Part shown: positions 1,594 to 28,411 of the stretch, in pieces
How positions within the stretch are numbered: position 1 is the first letter of the stretch
How the letters are laid out: every line of letters starts with the position of its first letter
Origin: a virus
Length of the DNA stretch: 28,411 nt
UHGV virus genome: UHGV-0191955
Direction: 5' to 3' (one strand)
Program-made: the position numbers and the translations under genes
Notes under the pieces: model-generated
Told to the model about the DNA's origin: nothing
The model's database searches: none
Seen by the model: only the letters and a program-made list of their open reading frames with translations

Positions 1594-1869
1594 ATGAAAC
1601 TGCAACGAATCATTCATCATTTGGAAGACGGCCGCCGCAAGTATGTGACCCATAACGGCGAGATGGAGAAATGGACGGAGGTCGAGATCGAAAACCTCCG
1701 CCGCAATACGGAACAGTACGGTCCGGCAGCCTATACCGCCGACTTCGCCAAGTACGGCATCTCCGCTCGCGAACTTCGCGAACGCTATCCCGATGCGAAG
1801 ATCATCCGTATCGTCGGTTTCGAGACCGAGGATCACGACCTGCCGTTGAACCCCGAAATCATCTTCTGA
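1594..1869 (+). CDS. hypothetical protein (91 aa)
   Basis: ATG-initiated ORF, co-directional, codon usage matches neighbours. No recognisable motif. Confidence 0.5.
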   Translation: MKLQRIIHHLEDGRRKYVTHNGEMEKWTEVEIENLRRNTEQYGPAAYTADFAKYGISARELRERYPDAKIIRIVGFETEDHDLPLNPEIIF

Positions 1870-1871
1870 CG

Positions 1872-2171
1872 ATGCCGAAGCTCAAGAAAACCGTCCGCCG
1901 TCCGTGGCTGCCGGAGCATAAACCGCAGTCGGGACGCCGCCACGCCAATACGGAGTTCTACCGATCCGCCGCGTGGCGGAAACTGCGCCTCGTCAAATTG
2001 GAGCAGCAGCCTCTGTGCGAAGAGTGCCTGAAACACGACCGGCATACTCCGGCACAGATGGTCGACCATATCGTCCCGATCAATCGGGGCGGGGCGCCGC
2101 TCGACTTGCAGAACCTGCAATCCCTCTGCAACTCCTGCCACAACCGTAAGAGCGCTCGGGAGCGAAGATAA
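1872..2171 (+). CDS. HNH endonuclease
   Basis: ATG at 1872 inside the longer 1671..2171 frame. HNH signature 'DHIVPINRGG...NLQSLCNSCHNRK' with a Cys pair upstream ('CEEC'). Position upstream of the terminase genes is typical for HNH-assisted packaging. Confidence 0.85.
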   Translation: MPKLKKTVRRPWLPEHKPQSGRRHANTEFYRSAAWRKLRLVKLEQQPLCEECLKHDRHTPAQMVDHIVPINRGGAPLDLQNLQSLCNSCHNRKSARERR

Positions 2172-2326
2172 CACGATGTCGAACCTCTAAAACGAATGCC
2201 TATGATGTAAAGCGAGCAGGCGGTACGAAGACCTTGAATCGATGTTGTAAATCGAATATGGGAGAGATTGGCTGTTGGAAAAAATCTTTTCGTATCGCCT
2301 GCATTTTTATCATAGACCTGACGACT

Positions 2327-3262
2327 ATGCGAACGACCCTTAACCTGAATGAAATCATCTCCGAATGGATTTCGGAGTGCGACATACTCCCCGCCACCAA
2401 ACGGGACTACCGACGCAAAATCGCGCTGTGGTTCCGATGGCTGTCGGCGCACGATGTCGATACCCGTTCGCCGGAGCGTCGGCACGTCTTGGAGTACAAG
2501 CAGCAGCTGCAAGCCGAAGGCAAGAGCGTCTATACCGTGAACAGCCTCGTTACGATTCTCAAGCTGTTTTACGGCTTCTGCGAGCGACAGGGCTACTACG
2601 ACAATATCGCTGCCGGGATCCGCAGCAGCAAACGCCATACGGAGTACAGCAAACTGCCGCTGACGGCAGAGCAGGCGTTCCGGCTGTTGGACAGCATCGA
2701 TACTTCGACCGCCATCGGGCGCCGCGACCGGCTGATGATTTCGCTGATGCTCTTCAACGGGCTTCGCACCTGCGAGGCGGAGCGTATCGACATCGGCGAC
2801 TTCGCCGAGCACGAGGGGCAACCGATCCTCCGTATCCAGCGCAAGGGACGCACGGACAAGAACGAGATCGTCGTGCTGCATCCCGACACGGTCGCGTGGC
2901 TGGAGGAGTATATCGCCGATAGGGACTTCGACAGCGACACTCCGCTCTTCGTATCCCACAAGGCGCAATGCGACAACCGGCTCGTGCGGCAGACGATCGG
3001 GCGGATCATCAAACAACGCCTCGCCCGCATCGGCATCTCGCATCCGAAGATTTCGGCGCATTCGCTGCGGCACACGTTCGGGGCGCTGATGGTCGAACAG
3101 GGCATAGACATCGAGACGATCAAGGATATGATGGGACACTCCGATACGAAGACCACGCGCATCTATATCGAGATGGCGCAGCAGCGACGGCTGCTCCATC
3201 ACTCGCCGTCGATGACCATAGGCGATGCGATATTGAACAGCGGCGGCAAACCGCACCGATGA
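2327..3262 (+). CDS. int: tyrosine site-specific recombinase / phage integrase
   Basis: C-terminal catalytic region 'HSLRHTFGALMVEQGIDIETIKDMMGHSDTKTTRIYIEM' carries the R..H..R..Y tyrosine-recombinase box. N-terminal core-binding-like region present. Start placed at the internal ATG (2327) rather than the ORF-track start at 2234. Confidence 0.9.
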   Translation: MRTTLNLNEIISEWISECDILPATKRDYRRKIALWFRWLSAHDVDTRSPERRHVLEYKQQLQAEGKSVYTVNSLVTILKLFYGFCERQGYYDNIAAGIRSSKRHTEYSKLPLTAEQAFRLLDSIDTSTAIGRRDRLMISLMLFNGLRTCEAERIDIGDFAEHEGQPILRIQRKGRTDKNEIVVLHPDTVAWLEEYIADRDFDSDTPLFVSHKAQCDNRLVRQTIGRIIKQRLARIGISHPKISAHSLRHTFGALMVEQGIDIETIKDMMGHSDTKTTRIYIEMAQQRRLLHHSPSMTIGDAILNSGGKPHR

Positions 3263-3694: not shown

Positions 3695-4171
3695 ATGAAA
3701 GGTCGCAAGAAAATACCTGACGAATTGAAATCCTTACGGGGTACGGCCCAGCCGTGTCGGATGACCGGCGGTGCTGTTTCTACCGGAACCGCTGTCGCGG
3801 CATTGCCGCGCTCCGGACTGAAAGGTACGGCGAAGAAGGTGTTCGAGGTTGTGGCGACGGAGTTGATCCACAAATGCCTGCTCGACGTCGTCGGCGTGGA
3901 CTTAGTCGTCGCCTACGCTCGCGAGATGGGACTGTACCACGACATGATGCGCGAAACCGAAAAGGAGGGATACACCATCGAAGTAATGACGAAACATGGC
4001 TCGGCGACGGTCGTCAACCCCAAGCGCAAGGTCGCGGAATCGGCACTCGCCAATGCCAAGGCGCTGGCGGCCGAGTTCGGATTGACGCCTGCCAGTCGCA
4101 GCCGCGTGGCGGCTTTGCTTTCGGATAATACCCCGAAAGACGACTTCGCCGAGTTCGAGGAGATAAAGTAG
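3695..4171 (+). CDS. phage terminase small subunit (P27-like)
   Basis: 158-aa protein immediately upstream of the terminase large subunit. C-terminal 'AAEFGLTPASRSRVAALL' resembles the P27-family small subunit. Confidence 0.7.
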   Translation: MKGRKKIPDELKSLRGTAQPCRMTGGAVSTGTAVAALPRSGLKGTAKKVFEVVATELIHKCLLDVVGVDLVVAYAREMGLYHDMMRETEKEGYTIEVMTKHGSATVVNPKRKVAESALANAKALAAEFGLTPASRSRVAALLSDNTPKDDFAEFEEIK

Positions 4172-4182
4172 ACTATCGCAAT

Positions 4183-5850
4183 ATGGCTGCTGTCAAGAAA
4201 TATCCCGCCGAACTTTATGCCGAGCAGGTCCGCTCCGGCGAGATTCTCGTCTGCGAGTATGTCCGCCTCGCCGTCGAGCGTTACTACGCCGATCTCGACC
4301 GTGCGCTCGACAAAGGCTGGTACTTCGATAAGAAAGCCGCGATGCGCGCTATCCACTTCATCGAAAAACTCAAACATACCAAAGGCGAGTGGGCGGGCCA
4401 GCGGTTCCGACTGGAGCTGTGGCAGCAGTTCGTGTTGTGGAATATCTTCGGGTGGAAGAATGCCGATGGCACGCGCCGGTTCCGATACGCTTATATCGAG
4501 ATCGCCCGCAAGAACGGCAAAACCGCACTGTCTGCCGGCATCGGGCTGTATATGCTCTTCGCCGACGGCGAGAGCCGCCCGGAGGTTTACTCGGCCGCGA
4601 CGGTCAAGGATCAGGCGAAAATCTGTTTTTCGGATGCTGTGGAGATCGTCAAGGCGACCGATCTGAAAAACTACCTTACGCCATACCGCAACTCGATCGT
4701 CTATGAACTCAAAGGCGGTACGATGAAGCCTCTCTCGTCCGATTACGGCACGCACGACGGTCTGAACCCGAGTTGCGGCATCATCGACGAGTTCCACGCC
4801 CACAAGGACAGCGGAATGTTCGACGTCATCAAGTCGGCTTTCGGCGCACGGCGGCAACCGCTGATGTTCATCATCACGACGGCGGGCTTCGACAAGTCGG
4901 GAGTCTGCTATGCCTATCGGGAGAACGTCATCAAAGTGCTGCGCGGCGTGAACGAGGACGATTCGTTGTTCGGCATCATCTACACGCTCGACGATAAATC
5001 GGAGTGGGACGACCCGAAGATGTGGATCAAGGCCAATCCCAACCTCGGCGTGAGTTTGAGCGCCGACTACCTCGCCGACCAAGTGAAAGATGCCAAGAAC
5101 CGTCCCGAAGCCGTCCGCAACGTGATGACGAAGAACGTCGATCTATGGGTCGATGCCGAGCGGACGTGGATACTCGACGACGTTTGGCAAAAGTGCATCG
5201 GTACGACCGACCCTGCCGACTTGAAAGGCTGCGCCTGCTGGGGCGGATTGGACCTCTCGAACGTGTCGGACATTACGGCCTACGTGCTGCTCTTCCACGA
5301 AAACGACCGTTTCCAATTGCTGCCGCACTTTTGGATCCCCGAAGAGAAGATGCTGGAGAAGATCCGCAAGGAGAATATCAACTACGACAAGTGGGTGGCA
5401 GAGGGTTATGTAACCGTTACGCCGGGCAATGTCATCGACTACGACTTCGTCAAGACGGATATCCTGCGTATCGTAGCCGATTACGACTTGCGGACATCGG
5501 CTTACGACCGCTGGAACTCTTCGCAGACGATCATCGACTTGCAGAACGAGGGTATGGAGTGCAACCCCTTCGGACAGGGCTACGGCTCGATGTCGGCACC
5601 GACCAAGGAGTTCGAGAAACTGGTTCTGACCGGAAAGATCGAACACTTCGGCAATCCGGTCTTGCGGTGGATGCTCGCATCGACGCTCGTCAAGACCGAT
5701 CCTGCGGGCAATATCAAACCCGACAAGGAGAAATCGACGCAGAAGATCGACGGCATCGTAGCCTCGATCATGGCACTCGGGGAGTGGATGACCGCACAGG
5801 CCAACGATGAAAGTAACCCGTATGAAAACAGAGGATTATTGACCTTATAA
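4183..5850 (+). CDS. phage terminase large subunit
   Basis: 555 aa. N-terminal ATPase region 'EWAGQRFRLELWQQFVLWNIFGW...YIEIARKNGKTAL' and a C-terminal nuclease-like region match the Terminase_1 architecture. Sits between the small subunit and portal. Confidence 0.85.
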   Translation: MAAVKKYPAELYAEQVRSGEILVCEYVRLAVERYYADLDRALDKGWYFDKKAAMRAIHFIEKLKHTKGEWAGQRFRLELWQQFVLWNIFGWKNADGTRRFRYAYIEIARKNGKTALSAGIGLYMLFADGESRPEVYSAATVKDQAKICFSDAVEIVKATDLKNYLTPYRNSIVYELKGGTMKPLSSDYGTHDGLNPSCGIIDEFHAHKDSGMFDVIKSAFGARRQPLMFIITTAGFDKSGVCYAYRENVIKVLRGVNEDDSLFGIIYTLDDKSEWDDPKMWIKANPNLGVSLSADYLADQVKDAKNRPEAVRNVMTKNVDLWVDAERTWILDDVWQKCIGTTDPADLKGCACWGGLDLSNVSDITAYVLLFHENDRFQLLPHFWIPEEKMLEKIRKENINYDKWVAEGYVTVTPGNVIDYDFVKTDILRIVADYDLRTSAYDRWNSSQTIIDLQNEGMECNPFGQGYGSMSAPTKEFEKLVLTGKIEHFGNPVLRWMLASTLVKTDPAGNIKPDKEKSTQKIDGIVASIMALGEWMTAQANDESNPYENRGLLTL

Positions 5851-5862
5851 CACAATACGATT

Positions 5863-6162
5863 ATGAGCAGCAGAAAAATGAATCGAAAACAATACAAGCG
5901 TTATCATTCGCCGGTCATCGCCGCCGAGCGCGAGAAAGTCGAGGCGGAACTGTCGGCGATGAATCCGCTCGAACCCGAAGTGCGGCATTTTCTTTCGTTC
6001 GAGGGCTTCGCGGAACTTTATCTCCGTATGCGCGACCTTTATCCGACGCAGCTGGAGGCTTACGAACGGTTGGAGGATTTCTACATCACTATCACCGGCA
6101 AGCGCAGATACTCCGAATTCAGTTCATTCAGGAGGGTGTTGAAGAGGAAACAACCACAATAA
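5863..6162 (+). CDS. hypothetical protein (99 aa)
   Basis: GC-rich ORF co-directional after the terminase. No motif recognised. Confidence 0.4.
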   Translation: MSSRKMNRKQYKRYHSPVIAAEREKVEAELSAMNPLEPEVRHFLSFEGFAELYLRMRDLYPTQLEAYERLEDFYITITGKRRYSEFSSFRRVLKRKQPQ

Positions 6163-6219
6163 TTTTGTAATATTACTAAAAATCATTACCTTTATTAGCA
6201 TTTTATAAAACTTTTCAGT

Positions 6220-6804
6220 ATGAAAGATTGGATTATTGCTAATAAAGAATGGTTATTTAGTGGTATAGGCGTTTCTGTTATAGGTTCGATTTATGCTTTC
6301 TTTCGGTGGATACACAAAGGGGCGGTCAAAGATAAACCGCAAATGCAAGTGCAAAATCAAGTTGTTAATGTGAATGTTGGAATGCAAGCCAAAAACCAAG
6401 AACAACCTGTGAAAAATCATTATATAGATATTAAATCGAAAGTGCGCATATTATTTATTGACGATGAGCGGTTTAATATGATCAATATCTTGAAAAAGGC
6501 TGGCTGGAAAAATATTGAATACAAAAAGGATCTTTCCGATTTAGATGATAACGCTGTATTATCGGCAAATGTCATATTTGTAGATATCAATGGAGTTGGA
6601 TGTAGTTTGTTTAGGAACCAAGGATTAGGTTTAGCGGCTGCGATTAAAAACAAACATAAAGATAAACGTGTCATAATTTACTCGGCTGAACCTAATGGCG
6701 ATCGATTTGATAATGCTTTACGTCAGGTCGATGCTTGTTTGCCTAAAAATGCTGAACCTATAGAATTTATGAATCTGATAGAAGAATACGCCGATAAGTT
6801 ATGA
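6220..6804 (+). CDS. membrane-anchored receiver (REC) domain protein with no output domain
   Basis: AT-rich gene. N-terminal hydrophobic helix 'WLFSGIGVSVIGSIYAFFRWI', Q/N-rich linker, then receiver-domain landmarks in the right order: 'VRILFIDDE' (acidic pair), 'VIFVDINGVG' (candidate phospho-acceptor Asp), 'RVIIYSAEP' (Ser/Thr position), 'CLPKNAEP' (conserved Lys). Stop overlaps the next start (ATGA). Confidence 0.7.
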   Translation: MKDWIIANKEWLFSGIGVSVIGSIYAFFRWIHKGAVKDKPQMQVQNQVVNVNVGMQAKNQEQPVKNHYIDIKSKVRILFIDDERFNMINILKKAGWKNIEYKKDLSDLDDNAVLSANVIFVDINGVGCSLFRNQGLGLAAAIKNKHKDKRVIIYSAEPNGDRFDNALRQVDACLPKNAEPIEFMNLIEEYADKL

Positions 6805-7838
6805 ATTTAAAAATTGTTTCTCAACAAGGTGAATTAATCTGCGATTCATTGCCATATTATGAGTGCACTCATTGTATTTTGACTAATCAAAGTCATGGAT
6901 ATGCCAATATTAAATGCCAGAGAGACAGGGAAAATAAAAGAATAGCGTATCATAAAAATGAGCATGGAGAATTGTTTGCATGTAGTCGAAATGCTAAAAC
7001 CACGAAATTATTTAAGGACGAAGTGAATTCGACTGTGTATTGCTTGAAATCATTAATTGCATTATCTGGCGAAGTTCGGCAATATACAATGGCGGAAACA
7101 TCTAATAGGGTAAACCGTATTATACACAATCTTAAAAGTATTAATGCGCATGCCATGCAAGAGTTATATGCATTGGTTCCGCAGGAGCAATTAATCAAAA
7201 ATGTTAGGGAGAATTCCAAAATTGTAGAAAGTGCGATAAAAAAGGATGTTCGTCAAGCGGCTTTAACGTTCTTTCGTATGGCAAAGTTCAATCTTAGTAT
7301 AAAAGCTGAATTTTCTATATATGAGAAACTTTTACAAGGTGGAGAAAAATTGAAACTTGAAAAAAGGAATCATAATATTCGAGATGTTATAATGATTGTT
7401 TTATACATGTTTTTCAATGATTTTAATGAAAAGGATGTATATATTGATATTGAAGAATATTATGAAAAAGTATATGTAGATTTTGAGTCAGTCCAAGTTG
7501 CGATTTATCATATAATTGAGAATGCTGCTAAATATATCGCGCCTAAAACGAATGCCAATATTACGTTTAAGATAGAGAAGCATACTCAATATATCATATT
7601 TGCAATGACCAGTCTATATATTAATCAAGACGAAGAATTTGAGATATTTAATGAAGGTTATTCTGGTATTGTGGCAAAGCAACTGAAAAAAGCAGGGAAA
7701 GGCATTGGAATGTATCGGGCAAAACGTTTGATTGAGTTGAATAATGGAACATTAACAGTTGAAGCAGGAGAGGCAATCAAAATAAATGGGATAGATTATG
7801 CAAATAATAAATTTATCATTGCTTTACCTATAAGTTAG
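6801..7838 (+). CDS. cytoplasmic histidine kinase with Cys-rich N-terminal region
   Basis: AT-rich gene. H-box-like 'RIIHNLKSINAHAM', N-box 'IYHIIENAAKYIAP', G2 box 'GKGIGMYRAKRLIELNNGTLTVEAG' typical of an HATPase_c fold. No transmembrane segment. N-terminal 'CDSLPYYECTHC...C' cluster could bind metal. Confidence 0.7.
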   Translation: MNLKIVSQQGELICDSLPYYECTHCILTNQSHGYANIKCQRDRENKRIAYHKNEHGELFACSRNAKTTKLFKDEVNSTVYCLKSLIALSGEVRQYTMAETSNRVNRIIHNLKSINAHAMQELYALVPQEQLIKNVRENSKIVESAIKKDVRQAALTFFRMAKFNLSIKAEFSIYEKLLQGGEKLKLEKRNHNIRDVIMIVLYMFFNDFNEKDVYIDIEEYYEKVYVDFESVQVAIYHIIENAAKYIAPKTNANITFKIEKHTQYIIFAMTSLYINQDEEFEIFNEGYSGIVAKQLKKAGKGIGMYRAKRLIELNNGTLTVEAGEAIKINGIDYANNKFIIALPIS

Positions 7839-7901
7839 ACATTGTCTTATCCATATCTCGAACCGCTTCGCTATGTTTGTCCCGAATAAAGGCAAGCGAT
7901 A

Positions 7902-9119
7902 GTGAAGTGGTTTCCTTTTTTGCATAGGGGCGAGCGGCGCGACATTTCATCGGCCGAATTCGAGGCAGCAGTGAATAAAGTCATTACCGCCGACACAGTC
8001 GCCGATGCCACGCACCAGCCGTATATCACCGAGGAGGGTGCATTGAACCTTACAGCGGTTTGGGCTTGCGTGCGAATTCTCTCAGAGACGGTCGGAACGC
8101 TCCCGTTGCATCTCTATCGCCGTACTGCTCGCGGTCGCGAGCGACAGTACGACCACCTCTGCCACCGACTCGTACAGGCTCCCAACTCCTATTCCACTCG
8201 TTTCGACCTAATGCACCATCTGATGGTTTCGTGCGCTTTGTGGGGCAACGGCTATGTCCACATCTTTCGGGACAAATGCTACCGCCCTGTTCGGCTGAAG
8301 TTCATTCATCCTGCCCGTATCGAGCCGCTCCTTACCGACAACGACGAACTCTTCTACCGATCGGACACGGGCGAACTGCTTTCGAACGAAGACGTCATCC
8401 ACCTGCGCGGGCTCTCGACTAACGGCTACAAGGGTAAAAGTCCGATCGCCGTCCATCGCGACAACCTCGCACTCTCTGTCTCTGCGCAACTCTACGGTAA
8501 ACGGTTCTTCGATCAGGGCGGCAATATGTCGGGCGTCTTCAAATATCCCTCGACGCTCAAGCCCGAAGCCTACCAGCGTCTCAAGAAAGACCTCATCGCC
8601 CAATCGGTCGGTTTGCACAACGCCCACGTCCCGCTGCTGTTGGAGGGCGGTATGACCTACGAACGCATCTCCATTCCTCCCGAAGATGCCCAATTCATCG
8701 CTACGCGCAAGTTCCAAAAGACCGAAATCGCCACCATCTACGGCATCCCGCCGCATATGATCGCCGACTTGGAACGTGCCACGAACAACAACATCGAGCA
8801 TCAGGGTATGGAGTTCGTGCAGTATTGCCTGATGCCGTACCTCGTCCGCATCGAGGAGGAGTTCAACCGTAAACTGCTCCGCGAGGACGAGTTCGGGGAG
8901 TATTACTTCCTCTTCGGCCTGAACGGACTGCTGCGCGGCGATGCCAAGACCCGCTCGGAATACTACAAGAATATGAATATCGTCGGCGCGATGTCTGCCA
9001 ACGAGATCCGCTCCCTCGAAGATATGAACTCCTACGATGGAGGCGACGAATACTTCGTACAAATGAACATGCAGCCGGTAACGACTGCCATAAAACCTGA
9101 AACGAATGGAACCGAATAA
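7902..9119 (+). CDS. phage portal protein (HK97 family)
   Basis: 405 aa, GTG start. N-terminal 'LNLTAVWACVRILSETVGTLPLHLYRR' is portal-like. Lies between terminase and prohead protease. Confidence 0.85.
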   Translation: MKWFPFLHRGERRDISSAEFEAAVNKVITADTVADATHQPYITEEGALNLTAVWACVRILSETVGTLPLHLYRRTARGRERQYDHLCHRLVQAPNSYSTRFDLMHHLMVSCALWGNGYVHIFRDKCYRPVRLKFIHPARIEPLLTDNDELFYRSDTGELLSNEDVIHLRGLSTNGYKGKSPIAVHRDNLALSVSAQLYGKRFFDQGGNMSGVFKYPSTLKPEAYQRLKKDLIAQSVGLHNAHVPLLLEGGMTYERISIPPEDAQFIATRKFQKTEIATIYGIPPHMIADLERATNNNIEHQGMEFVQYCLMPYLVRIEEEFNRKLLREDEFGEYYFLFGLNGLLRGDAKTRSEYYKNMNIVGAMSANEIRSLEDMNSYDGGDEYFVQMNMQPVTTAIKPETNGTE

Positions 9120-9747
9120 TGAAATAGAGATCCGGAGCCTTATCGGCGATCTGCATATCGAGAGCCGCGAGGAGGGAACCGTCAGCCGGACGATCGTCGG
9201 CTATGCCGCGAAGTTCGAGAGTTGGAGCGACCCTATTATGGGGTGGTTCCGGGAGAAGATCGCGCGGGGCGCATTCGACGGGTGCGACCTGTCGGACGTC
9301 ATCATGTGCTTCAACCACAATACCGATTCGATCCTCGCACGCACGACGAGCGGTACGCTGCGATTGGAGGTGGACGACGTAGGTCTGCGCTTCGCGTTCG
9401 AGGCTCCGAATACGACTTCGGGGAGCGATATGCTGGAGTTGGTACGCCGGGGCGACGTCTCGAAATGTTCGTTTCGCTTCGGCGTCGAGCAGGACGAGTG
9501 GCAGTATGCCGACGAGCAGAACGGTCTCGCGATGGACGAGCGGACGATACTCCGGTTCTCGCGTGTGGTAGATGTGTCGCTCGTGGTATTTCCTGCCTAT
9601 CCCGAAACCGAAGCCTCGGTGCGGTATCTCGAAGAGCGGAAAGCCGAGTGGTTATCATCAAATAAAACGGAAGCATCGAATCATTCTTATAAAATAAAAT
9701 CTCGAAACCGTTTGTGTGATTTTCTTAAAGTTGCAAATAGGCACTAA
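9106..9747 (+). CDS. HK97-family prohead protease
   Basis: 213 aa. 'VGYAAKFESWSD...GAFDG' and 'KCSFRFGV' resemble prohead (S78-type) proteases. Follows the portal and overlaps its 3' end. Confidence 0.8.
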   Translation: MEPNNEIEIRSLIGDLHIESREEGTVSRTIVGYAAKFESWSDPIMGWFREKIARGAFDGCDLSDVIMCFNHNTDSILARTTSGTLRLEVDDVGLRFAFEAPNTTSGSDMLELVRRGDVSKCSFRFGVEQDEWQYADEQNGLAMDERTILRFSRVVDVSLVVFPAYPETEASVRYLEERKAEWLSSNKTEASNHSYKIKSRNRLCDFLKVANRH

Positions 9748-9766
9748 CCGAAATTTCCATATCTTT

Positions 9767-9796
9767 GTAACAGCCGATGATTTCATCGGCTGTTAC
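9767..9796 (+). terminator. perfect 14-bp stem hairpin (GTAACAGCCGATGA-TT-TCATCGGCTGTTAC), candidate terminator
   Basis: Read directly from the sequence. Located just after the protease stop and before the AT-rich R-M island. Confidence 0.5.
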
Positions 9797-9826
9797 TTGT
9801 TATACAAATTAAGTAAATAAAGCATA

Positions 9827-10405
9827 ATGAAACTACGAATTCCAAACTCGGAAGTTCAAGAACTTCTAACCGACAAGTCTTTTGAGTATCCTAAATACGC
9901 GACTCAAATTATGAACTTGGCGAATCAAAATGCACAAGGTACTCGTCCGAATATTGTAGGTCAAATGAGCGACCTGATTCAAGAATTCGGAGCGGGATCG
10001 ATGATTGAATGGGATGCTTGGTATAAGAACGGTCACCCGGAAGCGATTAAGACTGCAACCGAACGAGTATATCGGATGATTGAATTATTTAAAGAGAGTA
10101 TTCAGACCATCGATAAGGATATGGTCCGAAAATGGATCGAAGAGCTTGTTGTTGTCAAAACTTATTGCGGATTAAAATTCCAAGAGGCCATTCTCCGTAA
10201 AATTGCAGAAGAAAAGCAGTCGGACTACAGATTGGCGACCCCAGAAGAAGAAGCACAAGGTATAGATGGATTCATTGGAAATTCCCCGGTTAGTATCAAG
10301 CCGATCACGTATCGGATTATGAATGAACTACCGGAGCACATCGATGTGCCGATTATTTACTATGACAAGAAGAAATCAGAAATAGTGGTTGAATATAATT
10401 TTTGA
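9827..10405 (+). CDS. candidate restriction endonuclease, N-terminal fragment
   Basis: AT-rich ORF convergent with the methyltransferase. Ends at a TGA placed in frame by a T5 run (10399-10403). No catalytic motif recognised, so the nuclease call is by context only. Confidence 0.35.
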   Translation: MKLRIPNSEVQELLTDKSFEYPKYATQIMNLANQNAQGTRPNIVGQMSDLIQEFGAGSMIEWDAWYKNGHPEAIKTATERVYRMIELFKESIQTIDKDMVRKWIEELVVVKTYCGLKFQEAILRKIAEEKQSDYRLATPEEEAQGIDGFIGNSPVSIKPITYRIMNELPEHIDVPIIYYDKKKSEIVVEYNF

Positions 10406-10409
10406 TATT

Positions 10410-11030
10410 ATGCCATATACTGGAGGACCATTGAATACATTAAATGGGAAAATGGGTATTTCTGCTCCGGAGAATAGTGTACCTGTTATGAAATTAATTC
10501 GCATACATCATCCTAAAAGTAAAGAGGAATTAGTCGAATTAATAAAATGGCATTCTGAAAACAAGTGTGAATGCGGTATTATTAGTAGAGGAACGGTTGA
10601 ACAATTTGGGAAAAATTTATATGAAGCTCAAAAAGCATTTTGGGGAGAATATAAATTTTCATTAGCAATATGCATCCAATGGGAATATGATTTATTTGTT
10701 TTACAATCATTAAAAGGTTCTTTGGTTGAAGATGCTGCTATTAGGACTTTAGAGACCCAATTAGAGCCTGAATATGCTTTTTCAGAAGCAACCGGTTATA
10801 TGGATGAAGAATTGCGAATTGATATTATTTGCAAATATAACAATAGCATTATTGCCGGCATTCAGGTCAAACCTTTAACATTTTTAATGATGAGACGAGA
10901 AATTATTACTTATAATGCTATGGCTAATCAAAAATGGGATAAACCTGTATATTATTTATATTATGACGAAAATGAAAATTTCGTAAATATTGAAGAAGTA
11001 AAGTCTCATTTAAAATCATCGATTCTTTAA
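10410..11030 (+). CDS. candidate restriction endonuclease, C-terminal fragment
   Basis: Begins 4 nt after the previous stop. Removing one T from the T5 run fuses both ORFs into a single ~399-aa frame. Its stop overlaps the methyltransferase stop on the opposite strand. Confidence 0.35.
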   Translation: MPYTGGPLNTLNGKMGISAPENSVPVMKLIRIHHPKSKEELVELIKWHSENKCECGIISRGTVEQFGKNLYEAQKAFWGEYKFSLAICIQWEYDLFVLQSLKGSLVEDAAIRTLETQLEPEYAFSEATGYMDEELRIDIICKYNNSIIAGIQVKPLTFLMMRREIITYNAMANQKWDKPVYYLYYDENENFVNIEEVKSHLKSSIL

Positions 11031-12172
11031 AATGTTAATGCAATCTGCGTTCGGGAAGGAATAGAAATAATACGCTTTCTATTCCCTACTTTTATTTCAG
11101 CAGTGACCGGAATAGTGTCCGCATATTCAGCAGTAATCATGTGATTGTTCCCTCTTATTGCAGATAAATAGACGAACCGCATATCTGTTTCTTGTGAAGT
11201 CATGACCGGCATCTGGAGATGCTCGTTGAAATGTTTGATCTCTTTATTTTGCGTTCGTTGCGAAACGAATTCTTTATGTGCTGCTATTCGATTAGCAATA
11301 ACTTCGTTCATTTGGTCAACCGATGATGAATGAATATTATCGGCTATAATATCTATAAACTTATCATCAATTTCATAACCAATACTATTGCGATTGCTCA
11401 TGATAGATGCAATCGTAGTTGTACCGGTTCCTAAAAAAGGATCCATTACCGTATCTCCTTGCAACGAATACATATTGATTAGACGGTATGGAACTTCCAA
11501 TGGATAGGCTGCACTCCTGTCTCGACTTTCTGCTGATATTTTTTGTTTGGTACCTTTTATATTGTCCCACAAATCGGAAAACCACACATTGCGTTCCTCC
11601 CAAAAGAACGAACTCTCACGGCGTTTCTGTTTGTCTATTGCAGATTTGAATTCGCGTTTACCTCCTTTGCGAAAAATCAAAATCCATTCGTGTTCCAATG
11701 TTACATATGCTCCTGCAGGAAGCATTCCGGACCCCATAAATTTATTTGGAGCATTCGTTTGCTTCCTCCAAATAATGTTTGGAAGATTTACATACCCGTG
11801 AGCGGTGAAATAGTTAATTATACGGGAATGATTGGAGTATAAAGCAAAATTGCCATTGAATGTTCGCGTCGCATCACCGACATTGATACAGACGATTCCA
11901 CCCGGGACAAGGACACGTGTCACCTCATCCCATACTTTATCCAGCTCTTGATGCATTAATTCAAAAGCCGCATCCGGCTGGTTTTCATCAAGGGCATTTG
12001 CAATACAAGGATTTTGTTTGCTTAATATCTCATCCCACATTTGAATCATGGGATATGGCGGAGATGTAACGACTAACTCGACCGAGTTGTCATTAATTTC
12101 TTTCATCTGTTGGGCAGCCCCAGTATATATGCTATGCGTTGTCTTCATAATTTCAAAGCAAAGATAATTCAT
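11027..12172 (-). CDS. DNA methyltransferase, beta-class N4-cytosine/N6-adenine type
   Basis: Motif IV 'VVTSPPYP' near the N-terminus and AdoMet-binding motif I 'VMDPFLGTGTT' near the C-terminus, the circular permutation typical of beta-class amino-methyltransferases. AT-rich. Alternative ATG at 12148. Confidence 0.88.
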   Translation of the reverse strand: MNYLCFEIMKTTHSIYTGAAQQMKEINDNSVELVVTSPPYPMIQMWDEILSKQNPCIANALDENQPDAAFELMHQELDKVWDEVTRVLVPGGIVCINVGDATRTFNGNFALYSNHSRIINYFTAHGYVNLPNIIWRKQTNAPNKFMGSGMLPAGAYVTLEHEWILIFRKGGKREFKSAIDKQKRRESSFFWEERNVWFSDLWDNIKGTKQKISAESRDRSAAYPLEVPYRLINMYSLQGDTVMDPFLGTGTTTIASIMSNRNSIGYEIDDKFIDIIADNIHSSSVDQMNEVIANRIAAHKEFVSQRTQNKEIKHFNEHLQMPVMTSQETDMRFVYLSAIRGNNHMITAEYADTIPVTAEIKVGNRKRIISIPSRTQIALTF

Positions 12173-12284
12173 TTCCTCCTATAATCCTCCATTATTCAAC
12201 TTTATTCTAAAATTGCGACAAAGTTTCCTTTTAGAGGCTGTTCGGTGGATTAAGTTTGCTCCCGAAGAATCAATAACGAGATTT

Positions 12285-13484
12285 ATGAGCAAACTGAAAA
12301 CCCTTAAAGAGAGCCGTGCTGCCGTGTTCGCAAAGATCGACGAGTTGCGTACCGCGACCGACGGTCGCGAGATGACCTCCGAGGAGCAGGAGAGGTGGAA
12401 CACGCTGCTTGCGGAGTACGAGCAGGCCGACCGAGCTGTCGAAGCCGAGGAGCGCTACGTCGATATCGAGCGCCGGCAAGCCGAGCAGCAGTATGTTCGA
12501 CAGACTTCCGGCGAGCAGCCCGACGAACGTCGTGCCGAGGAGTACCGCACCGCTTTCCGCGACTACCTGCTGCGCGGCGCAGCGGATATTTCGCCCGAGC
12601 ACCGGACACTCTTCGAGCAGCGCGCCGGCATCACGGGTTTGTCGGGCGGCGTGATCGTCCCTTCGTCGCTGGCCGACAGCATCGAGGTTGCGCTGAAAGC
12701 CTACGGCGGGATGTTCGAGGCGGGTTCCATTCTCACCACGAGTAAGGGCGGCGACCTGATTATGCCGACGGTAAACGATACCGATGCGAGGGCTACGGTC
12801 GTTGCCGAATACCAGCAGTCGACCAAGTCCGCACCGTCGTTCGGCTCCGAAACGCTCAAAGCCTATACCTACCGCACGCCCATCGTTCCCGTGTCGTTGG
12901 AGCTGTTGCAGGACTCGGCATTCGACCTCGAATCGCTGCTCTCGGGTCTGCTGGCCGAGTCGTTCGGACGGGGCATCAACTACGACCTTACGCGCGGCGA
13001 CGGCAAGGGCAAACCCAAGGGCATCGTCGAGTGGGCGCACGCCTGTGCTACTAACCCCTCTGCTGCAGGCATCTCGCTCGATGCTCTGATCGAGCTCGTC
13101 AAGGGCGTGGATTCCTCCTATGCCCGACACGGGCGGTTCATGTTCAACCGCAATACGCTCTACTCGCTCGTCAAGATCAAGGATACGACGGGACGCTACA
13201 TCTGGCAGGAGGGTGCGAAGGACGGCACGCCGCCGACCTTGTTCGGCAAGGCGTATATCCTGAACGACGACCTCGACGATGCCGCAGCGGGCAAGACTTC
13301 GGTGTTGTTCGGCGACTTCTCGAAGTTCAAGATCCGTATGGTCCGATCGTTCCGCGTGATCCGCCTGAACGAGCTGCTCGCCGAGTACCTTTCGATCGGG
13401 CTGTTCGGCTTCGCCCGCACGGACGGCATCCTGTTGGACGCCGGTACGCACCCCGTCCATAAGTTGGTGCATAAATCGGTGTAA
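12285..13484 (+). CDS. major capsid protein (HK97 fold) with N-terminal coiled-coil delta domain
   Basis: ATG at 12285 preferred over the TTG at 12213. N-terminal charged coiled-coil 'EEQERWNTLLAEYEQADRAVEAEERY', then a capsid-like body. Position after the protease. Confidence 0.8.
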   Translation: MSKLKTLKESRAAVFAKIDELRTATDGREMTSEEQERWNTLLAEYEQADRAVEAEERYVDIERRQAEQQYVRQTSGEQPDERRAEEYRTAFRDYLLRGAADISPEHRTLFEQRAGITGLSGGVIVPSSLADSIEVALKAYGGMFEAGSILTTSKGGDLIMPTVNDTDARATVVAEYQQSTKSAPSFGSETLKAYTYRTPIVPVSLELLQDSAFDLESLLSGLLAESFGRGINYDLTRGDGKGKPKGIVEWAHACATNPSAAGISLDALIELVKGVDSSYARHGRFMFNRNTLYSLVKIKDTTGRYIWQEGAKDGTPPTLFGKAYILNDDLDDAAAGKTSVLFGDFSKFKIRMVRSFRVIRLNELLAEYLSIGLFGFARTDGILLDAGTHPVHKLVHKSV

Positions 13485-16842: not shown

Positions 16843-17625
16843 ATGGCAAGATTGAAAACTCCGATTTCATACTATGGCGGCAAGCAGATGCTTTTGAAGC
16901 ATATCCTGCCGCTGATTCCCGAACATACGCTCTACACGGAAGCCTTCTGCGGCGGCTGCGCCGTGCTGTTCGCCAAGCCGCCCGCGCAGTGCGAAGTCAT
17001 CAACGACACGAACACCGAATTGGTGAACTTCTACCGCGTGGCGCAGACCCAGTATGCGGCACTCAAGGCGATGATCGACGCGACGCTCCACAGCCGCGAG
17101 ATACACGCGCACGCACGGCATATCAACGAGCATCCGTCGTTCTTCACGCCCGTCGAGCGGGCTTGGGCTGTATGGGTCTGCACGAAGTTGGGCTTCGCCT
17201 CGATGATCGACGGAACGTTCGGCTACGACCGCAGCGGTACGACGACGCTGAAACTCCGCAATGCGAAAGAGGCCTTCACCGAGGAGTTGTGCGGACGCCT
17301 CGGCCGCGTTACGGTCGAGTGCGAGGACGGCATCGATGTCATCCGCCGCTACGACTGTCCCGAGGCGTTCCACTTCGTCGATCCGCCCTATGTCGGCAGC
17401 GACTGCGGACACTACAACGGTACGTTCGACGAGGAGGATTTTTCGAGGCTGCTCGACACGCTTGCAACGGTCGAAGGGAAGTTCATGCTCACGATGTTTC
17501 CGCACGAGAAGATCGAACGCCTCGCCGCCCGGCACGGCTGGACGATCCATCGGCTCGACCGCACCATCACCGCCTCGAAAGTTTCCCGCCGCCGGCAGGA
17601 GGAGTGGATTACGACGAACTACTGA
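16843..17625 (+). CDS. Dam-like N6-adenine DNA methyltransferase (D12 class)
   Basis: 'ISYYGGK' N-terminal motif, 'EAFCGGCAV' AdoMet motif and catalytic 'DPPY' in 'FVDPPYVGS'. No adjacent nuclease. Confidence 0.85.
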   Translation: MARLKTPISYYGGKQMLLKHILPLIPEHTLYTEAFCGGCAVLFAKPPAQCEVINDTNTELVNFYRVAQTQYAALKAMIDATLHSREIHAHARHINEHPSFFTPVERAWAVWVCTKLGFASMIDGTFGYDRSGTTTLKLRNAKEAFTEELCGRLGRVTVECEDGIDVIRRYDCPEAFHFVDPPYVGSDCGHYNGTFDEEDFSRLLDTLATVEGKFMLTMFPHEKIERLAARHGWTIHRLDRTITASKVSRRRQEEWITTNY

Positions 17626-17632
17626 TACCGAC

Positions 17633-18408
17633 GTGGGTACATTCGCTTACGATAACCCCGCTTACATCGCTTCGTGCTCGTTCGGCAAGGATTCGATCGC
17701 TACGATCCTCCTTGCCCTCGAATATGGCGAGCCGCTCGATGCCGCTGTCTTTTCGGAGGTGATGTTCGACCATCGGCGCAATATCAGCGGCGAGATGCCC
17801 GAACACATCGAGTGGATCTATTCGACGGCGATTCCGCGTCTTGCCGCCTTGGGCGTACGGGTCGATGTCGTCCGTTCGGAGAAAGACTATCTTACGTTAT
17901 TCCATACGGTCATAGGGAGCAGTACGCATAAGGGTATGCTGCGCGGCTGGCTCATCGGCGGCAAGTGCTGCGCCAATCGCGACCTCAAAATCCGGCCTAT
18001 ACATCGCTATTATGCCCGTTATCGAGAGCAAGGCATCGTGCAGTACGTCGGCATCGCGGCCGACGAACCGAGACGCCTCGCGCGGATGCAGGAAAAGGGT
18101 ATAACCGTAAAACGAGTCTGCTCGCCAAGTACGGGTACACCGAGGCGGACGCCCGACGCAAGTGCGAAGAATACGGTCTGCTGTCGCCTCTCTACCGCAC
18201 CTCGCATCGGGGCGGTTGCTGGTTCTGCCCCAACTGTCGCATTCCGGTCTTCGCCGAACTGCGCCGCCGCCATCCTGAATTGTGGCGTGAACTGCAACTG
18301 CTCTCGAAGGTCGGAAATAAGTCCTCCGAAGGTTTCAAATACGGGCTGACTTTCGAGGAGGTCGAGCGGCGGATGGATCTCTTCGAACACTCACCGACGC
18401 CATTCTAA
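17633..18408 (+). pseudogene. PAPS-reductase-like (PP-loop) protein, frameshifted
   Basis: N-terminal part in one frame carries PP-loop-like 'CSFGKDS' and 'GIAADEPRRLARM'. C-terminal part in the -1 frame carries 'HRGGCWFCPNC'. The frame switch falls near 18092-18115 in an A4/G3 run. Start assigned to the GTG at 17633. Confidence 0.55.
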
Positions 18409-18410
18409 AC

Positions 18411-18509
18411 AACTGAAAATAAATACGATAATAGTCGCCGAATAACTTGCGTGTTCCGAATAACGATGTTATGTTTGTCATGCAATAAACAACTAAAATA
18501 GAGCGAATT
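18411..18509 (+). promoter_or_regulatory. repeated promoter element, copy A
   Basis: ~100-bp element shared by five loci. TTG at 18447-18449 and TATGTTTG at 18470-18477 with 20-nt spacing. Ends at the ATG of the downstream ORF. Confidence 0.65.
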
Positions 18510-18813
18510 ATGAAAAAGACAGTCATCGTGAAAGGCGAGCGTCGCAAGGTAGAATTCGAGTATCGAGTAATCGATAAATTGGTTAGTTGCCAAAAAGCAA
18601 ACGATGGGATAAGCAGGGGGATGGCTTCCGGTCGAAACCTATTACCACGAAGCCGTTGCCATTATCGACGGTGTAGAATATCCGAGCGTTCGACGCTGGC
18701 ATACCAATGGCGGCAGGTATTCGGAACAGTTCTTTTACAACGGACATTTCTATGATTCGTATAAGAAAATGATCGAGCGCATTCTCGAATCGGCAGACGA
18801 AAGTAACTCTTGA
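18510..18813 (+). CDS. small cassette protein A, apparently frameshifted
   Basis: ORF 18510..18755 reads 'MKKTVIVKGERRKVEFEYRVIDKLV...'. After a G5 run (18616-18620) the +1 frame gives a protein-like 'WLPVETYYHEAVAIIDGVEYPS...ERILESADESNS' to a stop at 18811-18813, while the original frame turns Arg-rich and low-complexity. Confidence 0.45.
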
Positions 18814-18833
18814 ACCTCGATGGAAGCAGATGG

Positions 18834-18863
18834 AAAAACAGGCTCCGTACGGAGCCTGTTTCG
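18834..18863 (+). terminator. perfect palindrome terminator hairpin
   Basis: AAAAACAGGCTCCGT/ACGGAGCCTGTTT: an A-tract, a perfect GC-rich palindrome, then a T-tract, a bidirectional intrinsic-terminator shape, directly after cassette A. Confidence 0.6.
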
Positions 18864-18886
18864 ATCTTTCGCTGTAAGCGTAAATA

Positions 18887-18997
18887 ACTGAAAATAAATA
18901 TGATAATAGTTACCGGATAACTTGTGTGTTCCGAATAACGATGTTATGTTTGCAGTACGATAAACAACTGAATAATAGACGATTAAAACACCCGAAC
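18887..18997 (+). promoter_or_regulatory. repeated promoter element, copy B
   Basis: Same element as copy A with substitutions; contains CTTG...TATGTTTG; followed by ATG at 18998. Confidence 0.65.
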
Positions 18998-19420
18998 ATG
19001 ACAAGTGCACAGGCAAAACAGATCGCATCGAACTATATGCGGCAGCAGAGCGATTATGTATTTTCGGCGGTAACGGTTAAAAGCCTCGCTCCGGCGAACG
19101 GACCAGTCAAGGTGTGGCTCACCACCGAAGACGACTACGGGGACGAACTGATCGTCGAGGTCGAGATGGACCCGCAGTCGAATGAGATCCGCTGGAAGAA
19201 GATCTGCAACACGGGACGCCTATCCGAATATCTGAAGCCGGCTACTCGGATCGATAAACTTTCGGCGGGGCAGCGCTTCCGGCTGCAAGGCGACTGCGTG
19301 GTTTACGAGTTCGTGGACAATGTAAAGGACCGCAGCAATATTCCCTATATCATCCGACGGGCGGACCGATCCGGTTGCGTATCGAGAGTCGGATGGCAGG
19401 AAGTTTTTCCTATCGAGTAA
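18998..19420 (+). CDS. small cassette protein B (140 aa)
   Basis: ATG immediately after promoter copy B. No motif recognised. Confidence 0.55.
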   Translation: MTSAQAKQIASNYMRQQSDYVFSAVTVKSLAPANGPVKVWLTTEDDYGDELIVEVEMDPQSNEIRWKKICNTGRLSEYLKPATRIDKLSAGQRFRLQGDCVVYEFVDNVKDRSNIPYIIRRADRSGCVSRVGWQEVFPIE

Positions 19421-27766: not shown

Positions 27767-28411
27767 TTATTCCGAAAATAATTTTTCAAATTCAGTAAAA
27801 TCATTTACGATAAGCCCACGAGGGTTGTTTTGCTCCCATTTTAATAGATTGGGTTCTGTTTTTCCGGTATTTCTCGAGTTAATATCTCTACATATATATT
27901 CACTATATTTCTGGAAACTCTCAATTTGTTTAAGATCAGGATAGCTGGCAAAAAATCGCATATTTGTTTCCCAATCCCGCATCGATCTTATACCGGTAGC
28001 GAATCCGTTATTTGCTAATTGGATATTAACATTTGCAGTATGGGATAGATTTTGAATTTCCGGAAATCTATTAATAATATGTCTTCCTAATATCAAACAA
28101 TGAGGAATTCCGCAAAATGCAAAATTATTTTTCTGTTTCCATGCATTAAACAGAAAATATTCGATATGCGGCATCTCGTCGATCGGATAAATTTCGGCGT
28201 AAAAACAATTGCTGAAATGATCTCGAATTAAAAAATTGACAATGTGACGTTTGCCGGTTCTCTCATAATTATTCCAATTAATATCGAATTTTTTTAGTTG
28301 ATATTTGATCTCTCCATTTTTTAACAAATAATAATTTTGAGAAATCGACATATTTAATTGATGTACTTGATTGGGGTAGTCGCTTTTGTATTTAAAATGA
28401 TAGCCGATCAT
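27767..28411 (-). CDS. hypothetical protein, AT-rich, possibly 5'-partial at window edge
   Basis: 214 codons on the minus strand running to the last base of the window, convergent with the tape measure gene. Sharp drop in GC. No motif recognised. Confidence 0.5.
   Translation of the reverse strand: MIGYHFKYKSDYPNQVHQLNMSISQNYYLLKNGEIKYQLKKFDINWNNYERTGKRHIVNFLIRDHFSNCFYAEIYPIDEMPHIEYFLFNAWKQKNNFAFCGIPHCLILGRHIINRFPEIQNLSHTANVNIQLANNGFATGIRSMRDWETNMRFFASYPDLKQIESFQKYSEYICRDINSRNTGKTEPNLLKWEQNNPRGLIVNDFTEFEKLFSE

Follow-up and report, generated by a model that had tools for sequence, protein, structure and literature searches.

Why would a temperate phage carry, between its packaging and head genes, a receiver protein whose only other part is a membrane anchor, together with a soluble histidine kinase? 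This question is raised by two adjacent genes, here named A and B, in the virus genome UHGV-0191955, which was analysed over its whole stretch of 28,411 nucleotides (hereafter the window). A preliminary description of this DNA had viewed the two genes as a horizontally acquired moron and had thought of an abortive-infection (Abi) switch, a superinfection-exclusion switch or a lysogeny signalling module. It proposed, as checks, profile searches with both proteins and a survey of the corresponding slots in related prophages. Here, we report that the pair is, on sequence criteria, a member of the PADLOC candidate defence system PDC-M43, and that it sits in a slot that related phages fill with other defence systems. 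The reading towards which we lean, with restrained confidence, is that the cassette is a prophage-carried copy of PDC-M43, which the lysogen would express as a minimal switch for immunity or exclusion that is based on phosphotransfer.

The pair belongs to the candidate defence system PDC-M43

Both proteins match their PADLOC profiles over nearly the full length. Protein A aligns to PDC-M43A (PDLC04646) with an E-value of 1.3e-66 (residues 3-191 on profile positions 2-198 of 203), and protein B to PDC-M43B (PDLC04647) with 2.6e-109 (residues 3-343 on positions 5-342 of 347). The catalogue defines the cassette as two adjacent families (FAM_00604>>FAM_02649), and the window has this very arrangement: A then B on the same strand, with an ATGA overlap of stop and start codons. 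All sequence criteria of PDC-M43 thus agree on the membership of the pair. In PADLOC-DB, no system other than PDC-M43 scored at E<=1, although the presence of Detocs models in that release is unconfirmed.

PDC-M43 (cassette CAS_00151) is a "guilt-by-embedding" prediction of Payne, Hughes, Fineran and Jackson (2024), one of 145 candidates taken from cassettes that are embedded in BREX, DISARM or type I restriction-modification (R-M) loci (Table S8, bioRxiv 10.1101/2024.01.29.577857). Nowhere in the main text of that work does "histidine kinase", "response regulator", "two-component" or "HATPase" appear. Among the papers searched on anti-phage systems with histidine kinases, receivers or transmembrane (TM) proteins, the Detocs preprint alone was relevant; the A-B pair is not described in Kaur et al. 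2020, and an unvalidated HATPase+REC prediction in a figure legend of DefensePredictor (PMC13092281) could not be linked to the PDC-M43 family. What is new here for PDC-M43 is its location in a prophage head operon, its anatomy at the level of domains and residues, its topology, the absence of the G1 aspartate and a motif in the linker of A.

The family is large. The homologs of A number more than 400. For B, searching 1.84 billion representatives with a profile returned about 470 clusters (50% identity) at E<=1e-30, the top 150 of which are uniformly ~340-360 aa long. Given these numbers, A and B are real genes and not chance open reading frames (ORFs). The exact proteins of the window are found on ~105 contigs on record and an identical B in 196 blocks of a public collection, which marks the prophage as common in human metagenomes. 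The pairing is obligate: in the 12 contexts inspected, the order is always A then B and no third gene is conserved. The spacing between A and B ranges from -53 to +2 nt in nine metagenomic or genomic contexts, and three plasmid loci show an 8-nt overlap.

Protein A is a membrane-anchored receiver

The N-terminal part of A is dominated by one hydrophobic helix, which is preceded by a conserved N8/W11/F13/S14/G15/G17 motif. Its maximal Kyte-Doolittle hydropathy over 19 residues (KD19) is 1.40 in the window protein, with a median of 1.89 in 119 homologs. On average, lysine plus arginine account for 0.63 residues ahead of the helix and for 4.2 of the 15 that follow it, and the positive-inside pattern holds in 98% of the 119 homologs. 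This charge asymmetry predicts an N-out/C-in topology, in which A would cross the membrane once, its N-terminus lying outside and its receiver domain in the cytoplasm.

A disordered linker of 34-56 residues, rich in N, K, S and T, joins helix and receiver. It is otherwise unconserved, which makes one strand-like motif stand out: its family consensus N-[VI]-[IV]-[TN]-[IV]-N-N-[GN] (NVITINNG-like) occurs in 81 of 117 homologs, against 2.3 expected in shuffled linkers. The motif alternates hydrophobic residues with asparagines, a pattern that we take to resemble a short beta-zipper or an amyloid-like core.

The C-terminal part adopts a receiver (REC) fold. In the AlphaFold2 (AF2) model, residues 77-193 form a (beta-alpha)5 domain with a predicted local distance difference test (pLDDT) score of ~85-94. 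Its top Foldseek matches in the PDB are all receivers (NtrX, QseB, NarL, PorX, CheY and Spo0F), with E-values of 4e-6 to 1e-4 and a target TM-score of ~0.7. Residues D81, D82, D122 (codon at 6583-6585), S155 and K176 are invariant across phyla, proteobacterial homologs included, and a Response_reg match at E<=0.01 is obtained for 33 of 82 family members (best 3.7e-6). The D+2/T+2 positions hold the pair N124/E157. This combination is CheY-like and suggests a fast, reversible switch.

Beyond anchor and receiver, neither Pfam nor the AF2 model nor Foldseek reveals a DNA-binding, enzymatic, purine nucleoside phosphorylase (PNP), nuclease or hydrolase domain. The architecture of A given in the preliminary description, one N-terminal TM helix plus a receiver and no further output, is thus borne out by hydropathy and modelling, and so is its statement that this is not a classical transcriptional two-component system. 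The Pfam family YxzE ("putative bacteriocin"), which matches seven family members, was rejected as generic TM composition; when ten N-termini of the A family were scanned, only scattered sub-threshold matches to unrelated TM segments appeared. A 272-aa variant of A (locus L009; L-numbers are our own labels) reflects a mis-called start codon, the real homolog being ~192 aa long. In the nr database, the window proteins are DAY94827.1 and DAY94798.1 (Caudoviricetes sp.). The first, protein A, is named "Pilus assembly protein TadZ N-terminal", probably after a remote receiver-like match. The name is misleading, since all the receiver catalytic residues are present and the TadZ ATPase part is missing.

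Protein B has a kinase fold, a Cys4 domain and an altered G1 box

Protein B contains no hydrophobic segment (maximal KD19 of 0.73) and is soluble. Its AF2 model (pLDDT 92) consists of a beta-rich domain (1-62), a dimerization and histidine phosphotransfer (DHp) hairpin (68-179) and an alpha/beta catalytic ATP-binding (CA) domain (188-343). Over ~250 columns, Foldseek matches it to the histidine kinases WalK, HK853, CusS and YycG (E 1e-14 to 1e-11). Residues 180-323 match NCBIfam histidine-kinase models (1e-9 to 1e-5), and a profile of B matches kinase CA domains in the PDB. A fold search of BFVD returned only distant viral kinases, mostly from giant viruses.

The DHp helices span residues 82-125 and 135-179. 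Among 211 family members, H109 is present in 100% and N110 in 99%, and we infer that H109 is the phospho-acceptor. The two residues singled out in the preliminary description for point mutation, the histidine in "IIHNLKS" and the aspartate in "VIFVDINGVG", correspond to H109 of B and D122 of A; both proved to be invariant.

The N-terminal domain carries four cysteines (C22, C25, C39 and C61), which are conserved at 97-99% in close homologs and at ~80% in the 211 members. It matches no Pfam family and no PDB sequence at E<=10, and is presumed from its conserved cysteines to be a metal-stabilised sensor domain. The earlier picture of a soluble kinase with a Cys/His-rich N-terminus therefore holds for solubility, kinase fold and cysteines; the histidines of that region are not conserved.

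The nucleotide-binding site is unusual. The N box (N241, K244 and Y245) and the G2 box (G299, G301 and G303) are intact and present in 100% of the 211 members, and an acidic [ED]285-G-[YF]-S-G289 motif takes the usual place of the F box. The G1 box "DxGxG" is replaced throughout by M269-x-S271 (7605-7613), with both residues at 100%. In HMMER alignments these residues fall on the DxGxG of SrrB, YycG, VicK and 7z8n, and the model puts them where the second strand of the CA hairpin ends, structurally the G1 position. On the basis of these alignments, the adenine-contacting aspartate of GHKL ATPases is absent from the whole B family. Protein B may bind ATP non-canonically, may bind another nucleotide, or may act mainly as a phosphotransferase or phosphatase. 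For a kinase family of 470 clusters, this raises the question of the mode of nucleotide binding, and kinase activity could even be absent.

The cassette occupies a defence hotspot in the head operon

Between the large terminase gene (terL) and the portal gene, the composition of the window changes abruptly. The cassette (6148-7835) has a G+C content (GC) of 0.321, compared with 0.556 for the window minus its two AT-rich islands; at third codon positions, the GC is 0.30 for A and 0.26 for B, as against 0.77 for terL and 0.71 for the portal gene. In sister phages with other cargo (loci L018, L019, L021, L022 and L024), homology to the window stops at ~6146-6148 and resumes at 7836 or 7903. These sharp breakpoints delimit an insert of ~1.7 kb at ~6148-7835. 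The coupled genes, the AT-rich island within a GC-rich head module and the moron character read from the letters alone are all upheld by these data.

To survey the slot, 79 related phage loci (L017-L095) were collected from IMG/VR via the portal gene. The gap between terL and portal ranges from 358 bp, where it holds only the conserved backbone gene orf99, to ~3.7 kb (3697 bp). As is typical of a moron, the cassette lies between conserved genes in a slot that is empty or otherwise filled in close relatives. The other fillings are Gabija GajA+GajB (1.8e-157 and 4.1e-133), the reverse transcriptase of a type VI retron (3.3e-74), a type II methylase together with an endonuclease, RmrA with a 210-aa partner (1.3e-56) and a PDC-M63B-like gene. 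The survey thus revealed the variable slot that had been anticipated, with defence cargo in it; the pair itself recurs in just one of the 79 loci, the one that is identical to the window.

The gap from the prohead protease to the major capsid gene is a second site of this kind. It varies from 2 bp to 4.6 kb in the relatives, where its cargo is PDC-S31 or a type II R-M pair, of which there are at least five different ones. In the window this gap forms the second AT-rich island (9750-12210, GC 0.37) and holds an MjaI-family type II R-M moron, two genes downstream of the cassette. The phage lineage therefore has two interchangeable defence hotspots inside its head operon. P2/P4-type phages, according to what Rousset and colleagues reportedly described in 2022, have hotspots in which a fixed slot between conserved genes takes interchangeable defence systems; here, unlike in those phages, the slots (terL-portal and protease-capsid) lie within the head-morphogenesis operon of a Bacteroidota (Alistipes-type) siphophage lineage. 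No PADLOC match was obtained for several ORFs of 180-520 aa in the slots (e.g. L066:3705-5264, L073:661-1974 and L084:3059-3868), which are thus candidates for new defence genes.

These data bear on two other explanations of the pair. One could regard it as an ordinary housekeeping two-component system that came into the prophage by chance, since its homologs are annotated "response regulator", "transcriptional regulator" or "histidine kinase". We judge this to be highly improbable: A lacks any output domain, DNA-binding or other, only one of 79 sister loci carries the pair, its composition is foreign and its distribution is patchy and linked to mobile elements. On the grounds of composition, distribution and lack of an output domain, such a housekeeping system is effectively excluded. 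The second explanation is superinfection exclusion rather than Abi, whereby a switched, membrane-tethered receiver would block DNA entry or a membrane step and leave the cell unharmed. A prophage-borne pair in a slot shared with other anti-phage cargo would be in keeping with this, and the single TM helix of A with no toxic domain, as well as the rapid reversibility suggested by N124/E157, would suit it. However, a sensor kinase that resides in the cytoplasm is not well placed for acting before the DNA enters, and the exclusion logic of a prophage is less natural for a family that is also found in chromosomal type I R-M operons and on plasmids, which makes this version unlikely.

The pair travels with defence genes and mobile elements

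Outside these phages, the pair is repeatedly found next to defence or mobility genes. In type I R-M operons (L011/L012 and L014-L016) it lies between the HsdS and HsdR genes, in the order HsdS-[A][B]-HsdR, an embedding seen here independently and in agreement with how the PDC-M43 candidate was defined. It is cargo of a CTnDOT-like integrative and conjugative element (ICE) in Bacteroides xylanisolvens (L005). Elsewhere it directly follows an integrase gene and precedes Xre-RES and Fic genes (L098), and on plasmids of Shewanella, E. coli and Burkholderia (L102-L104) it stands beside HigB/HigA, NACHT, DUF3800 and DUF262 genes. The homolog of the E. coli plasmid is absent from 5,426 complete E. 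coli genomes. In a flavobacterial genome (L096), a two-gene unit, coding for a 553-aa tetratricopeptide repeat (TPR) protein and a 221-aa protein, flanks the pair on either side (4013-6343 and 10973-13303). Taken together, the PDC-M43 match, the slot shared with defence systems and the embedding in R-M loci, ICE and plasmids give strong contextual support to a role in defence.

As a separate observation, the ICE of B. xylanisolvens carries another cassette 5 kb from the pair (L005, 16531-21032), which may be a further defence-like module built on a receiver and an ATPase. It encodes a Response_reg protein of 309 aa, an HATPase_c_3/HATPase_c protein of 860 aa and a DNA methylase.

The same neighbourhoods also allow an addiction module to be considered, in the manner of toxin-antitoxin systems: A would be a latent membrane toxin that B holds inactive, loss of the element or of B would set A free and kill the cell, and any effect on phages would be secondary. 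The two genes overlap, they are borne by mobile elements and adjoin HigBA and Xre-RES toxin-antitoxin genes, and a B protein that lacks the G1 aspartate might mainly hold A in one state as a phosphatase or phosphotransferase. Against such a module speak the gene order, with a larger "antitoxin" after a small "toxin", the conservation of a complete sensor domain, and the location in R-M operons and in a phage defence hotspot. We thus attach little weight to it, keeping in mind that toxin-antitoxin and Abi functions are not mutually exclusive.

A role in signalling unrelated to defence seems to us similarly improbable. In such a role, the Cys4 domain, which could be a redox or metal sensor, would read host physiology for the phage or another mobile element and tune lysogeny, induction or a host membrane process, with host partners recruited to the membrane-tethered receiver. 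The lack of an evident effector in A would fit with this, because single-domain receivers commonly act by protein-protein interaction. Nevertheless, the pair is found in unrelated backgrounds and phyla, which argues against a specific partner in host or phage, and sister phages swap it for bona fide defence systems and not for regulators.

Relation to known systems

The closest comparison is Detocs, a three-gene system (dtcA-dtcB-dtcC) in which all three genes are needed for detection (Rousset et al. 2023, bioRxiv 10.1101/2023.01.24.525353). DtcA is a sensor kinase with N-terminal TPR repeats, DtcB a standalone receiver that serves as a phosphate buffer, and DtcC combines an N-terminal receiver with a C-terminal cell-killing effector, which is a PNP in 80% of the cases and a nuclease or TM domain in the rest. 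Mutation of the kinase His or of the receiver Asp abolishes defence by Detocs. A variant whose alpha/beta-hydrolase is transmembrane protects, so that phosphotransfer from His to Asp can drive anti-phage effectors, transmembrane ones included (bioRxiv 10.1101/2023.01.24.525353).

The pair shares with Detocs a kinase sensor and a receiver protein whose remainder is a non-transcriptional effector, and the likely logic would be the same, from a phage cue to His~P, then Asp~P and finally the effector. Beyond this, the two diverge. The window pair has two genes, with no third gene in any of the 12 contexts, and no standalone buffer receiver lies beside it in the window or in related loci. In place of the TPR repeats of DtcA, for which there is no match, B (345 aa) has its 62-residue, beta-rich Cys4 N-terminus. 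The order of A is the reverse of that of DtcC, with the TM helix N-terminal, the receiver C-terminal and no enzymatic effector. In addition, the G1 box of B is non-canonical. In four architectural traits (gene number, buffer receiver, kinase sensor and the layout of the effector protein) the pair departs from Detocs, and it is not a Detocs member, in line with the loose resemblance, different in gene number and domain order, that had been proposed at the outset.

With classical two-component systems (HK853/RR468, WalK and CheY-type receivers), the pair has in common the DHp+CA fold, the (beta-alpha)5 receiver and the Asp/Asp/Asp/Ser/Lys quintet. It departs from them in having no DNA-binding or enzymatic output, in its distribution along mobile elements, in the Met that replaces the G1 Asp of B, and in the inversion of the usual arrangement, the receiver being membrane-tethered and the kinase soluble.

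The TM effectors of CBASS and Pycsar (e.g. Cap15 and PycTM) offer another parallel. They fuse a small cytoplasmic, signal-receiving domain to TM helices, and their activation is thought to oligomerise them and disrupt the membrane, resulting in abortive infection. In A, the signal would be Asp phosphorylation instead of a cyclic nucleotide, and there is only one TM helix.

A putative mechanism

How could a pair built in this way act? Our favoured reading, a prophage-carried immune or exclusion switch, may be pictured as follows. Protein B would be a cytoplasmic, probably dimeric, histidine-kinase-like sensor, whose Cys4 domain, probably stabilised by metal, would detect an infection cue. Through H109, it would set the phosphorylation state of D122 in the receiver of A, itself tethered to the inner membrane by its one N-out/C-in helix. 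Since A has no other domain, receiver-driven self-association at the membrane is the output that we propose: phosphorylation would bring the receiver domains together and so gather the conserved TM helices, perhaps along with the NVITINNG-like linker strands, and the membrane would be perturbed. Infection would then be aborted or superinfection blocked. In an alternative wiring, acetyl phosphate would phosphorylate A, and B, as a phosphatase, would restrain it. A stronger version would see here a new kind of two-component output, neither transcriptional nor enzymatic, in which a membrane-tethered receiver oligomerises on phosphorylation and its TM helix and short Asn-rich strand motif assemble into a structure that perturbs the membrane, under the command of a kinase with a non-canonical pocket and a phage-sensing Cys4 domain; this version is conceivable and, in our opinion, doubtful.

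Several points weigh against the reading of the pair as an immune switch. One TM helix and ~11 residues of ectodomain do not make up an effector domain of any recognised kind, and the helix could be only an anchor. At the level of profiles, the searches suggested beforehand succeeded in part: the PADLOC models are matched over the full length, whereas the general Pfam models are not reached. Protein A of the window scores 14.1 bits against Response_reg (PF00072), below the cutoff of 30.2 (E=0.054), and B scores 24.6 against HATPase_c, below the gathering threshold of 26.4. Moreover, a profile of A matched no receiver among PDB sequences; its sole matches there, de novo TIM barrels, were dismissed as an uninformative artefact of beta-alpha repeats. 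As the sequence matches of the window A are weak, its assignment as a receiver relies on the fold, the conserved residues and the 33 of 82 family members mentioned above. With the G1 aspartate absent, which is the chief caveat from within the system itself, and the HATPase_c score sub-threshold, ATP-dependent autophosphorylation of B is not assured. Two contexts (L013 and L100) are not obviously defence-related. Finally, the seven systems that Payne et al. validated (bioRxiv 10.1101/2024.01.29.577857) do not include PDC-M43, and a literature search found no paper naming it.

Features of the locus and of the phage

The coordinates of the cassette, its domains and its neighbours are collected in Table 1. 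The candidate -7 promoter box upstream of A owes its proposed role to the known Bacteroidetes consensus. Such TAnnTTTG boxes number 20 in the window, compared with 9.4 expected; further ones on the + strand lie at 7872-7879 (30 nt 5' of the portal gene) and at 9760-9767 (67 nt 5' of the MjaI endonuclease gene). The placement of these boxes suggests that each moron, plus the gene after it, may have its own promoter. A scan of the window found no intrinsic terminator 3' of B, and sigma-70 promoter matches were at chance level. No family match was obtained for orf99 in profile searches.

Table 1. Position of the A-B cassette, of the domains of its two proteins and of neighbouring genes in the window.
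Feature	Position	Strand	Basis or remark
Gene A: membrane-anchored receiver protein (PDC-M43A), 194 aa	6220..6804	+	ORF; PADLOC PDLC04646; AF2 + Foldseek
Predicted TM helix of A, ~residues 12-31	6253..6312	+	hydropathy, conservation, AF2 helix 15-32
Strand-like linker motif QVVNVNVG, A residues 47-54	6358..6381	+	conservation
Receiver (REC) domain of A, residues 75-194	6442..6801	+	conservation, Foldseek, Pfam of family members
Gene B: soluble histidine-kinase-like sensor (PDC-M43B), 345 aa	6801..7838	+	ORF; PADLOC PDLC04647; AF2 + Foldseek
N-terminal beta-rich Cys4 domain of B, residues 1-62 (C22, C25, C39, C61)	6801..6986	+	conservation, AF2
DHp helical hairpin of B, residues 68-179; H109-N110 (His codon 7125-7127)	7002..7337	+	AF2, Foldseek, conservation
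Catalytic ATP-binding (CA) domain of B, residues 188-343	7362..7829	+	profile matches, conservation
ATGA overlap, A stop / B start codons (translational coupling)	6801-6804	+	ORF coordinates
AT-rich cargo cassette (moron) in terL/orf99-portal slot	6148..7835	.	homology breakpoints, GC
Candidate Bacteroidota -7 promoter box TAATTTTG (TAnnTTTG)	6160..6167	+	53 nt 5' of A start; overlaps orf99 stop codon
Large terminase (terL), left flank	4183..5850		
orf99: conserved backbone gene (99 aa), left edge of slot, outside cassette	5863..6162	+	present in 37 related loci
Portal gene, right edge of slot	7902..9119	+	Pfam Phage_portal 7e-102
Prohead protease, after portal	9106..9747		
MjaI-family restriction endonuclease	9827..10405		3.9e-65
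Second, diverged MjaI-like ORF	10389..11030		2.7e-5
N6/N4 DNA methylase	11027..12172	opposite to MjaI genes	

The window represents a temperate phage whose host is of the Alistipes type. The integrase gene (2234..3262) lies upstream of the small terminase gene (terS), followed by an HK97-like head module; homologs carry Alistipes names, and a 70%-identical version resides in a 2.6-Mb Alistipes contig. In INPHARED, the phage has no megablast match and B no tblastn match. Directly 5' of the small terminase gene, an HNH endonuclease gene (1671..2171) precedes that of the integrase, which is of the tyrosine type. Within the tail-gene region lies a D12-class (Dam-like) adenine methyltransferase gene (16843..17625), which may be one more moron or may serve against restriction. 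AT-rich stretches (GC 0.30-0.43) also occur at 27767-28411 on the - strand and at 18400-19000. For a 214-aa ORF at the end of the window, which may represent further cargo, Pfam gave no match.

Implications

If the stronger version of the mechanism is true, no self-contained immune system based on phosphotransfer would be known that is smaller than PDC-M43, which phages, ICEs and plasmids would have spread across Bacteroidota and Pseudomonadota. A pair that defends would represent a second and much simpler architecture of phosphotransfer immunity after Detocs, made of two small proteins, with no buffer receiver and with a TM helix as its effector. It would also be a tractable model for studying how receivers act on membranes and how a soluble immune kinase senses its cue. 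Besides, the two slots of the head operon constitute a natural library for finding defence systems of Bacteroidota and for studying phage-phage competition in Alistipes.

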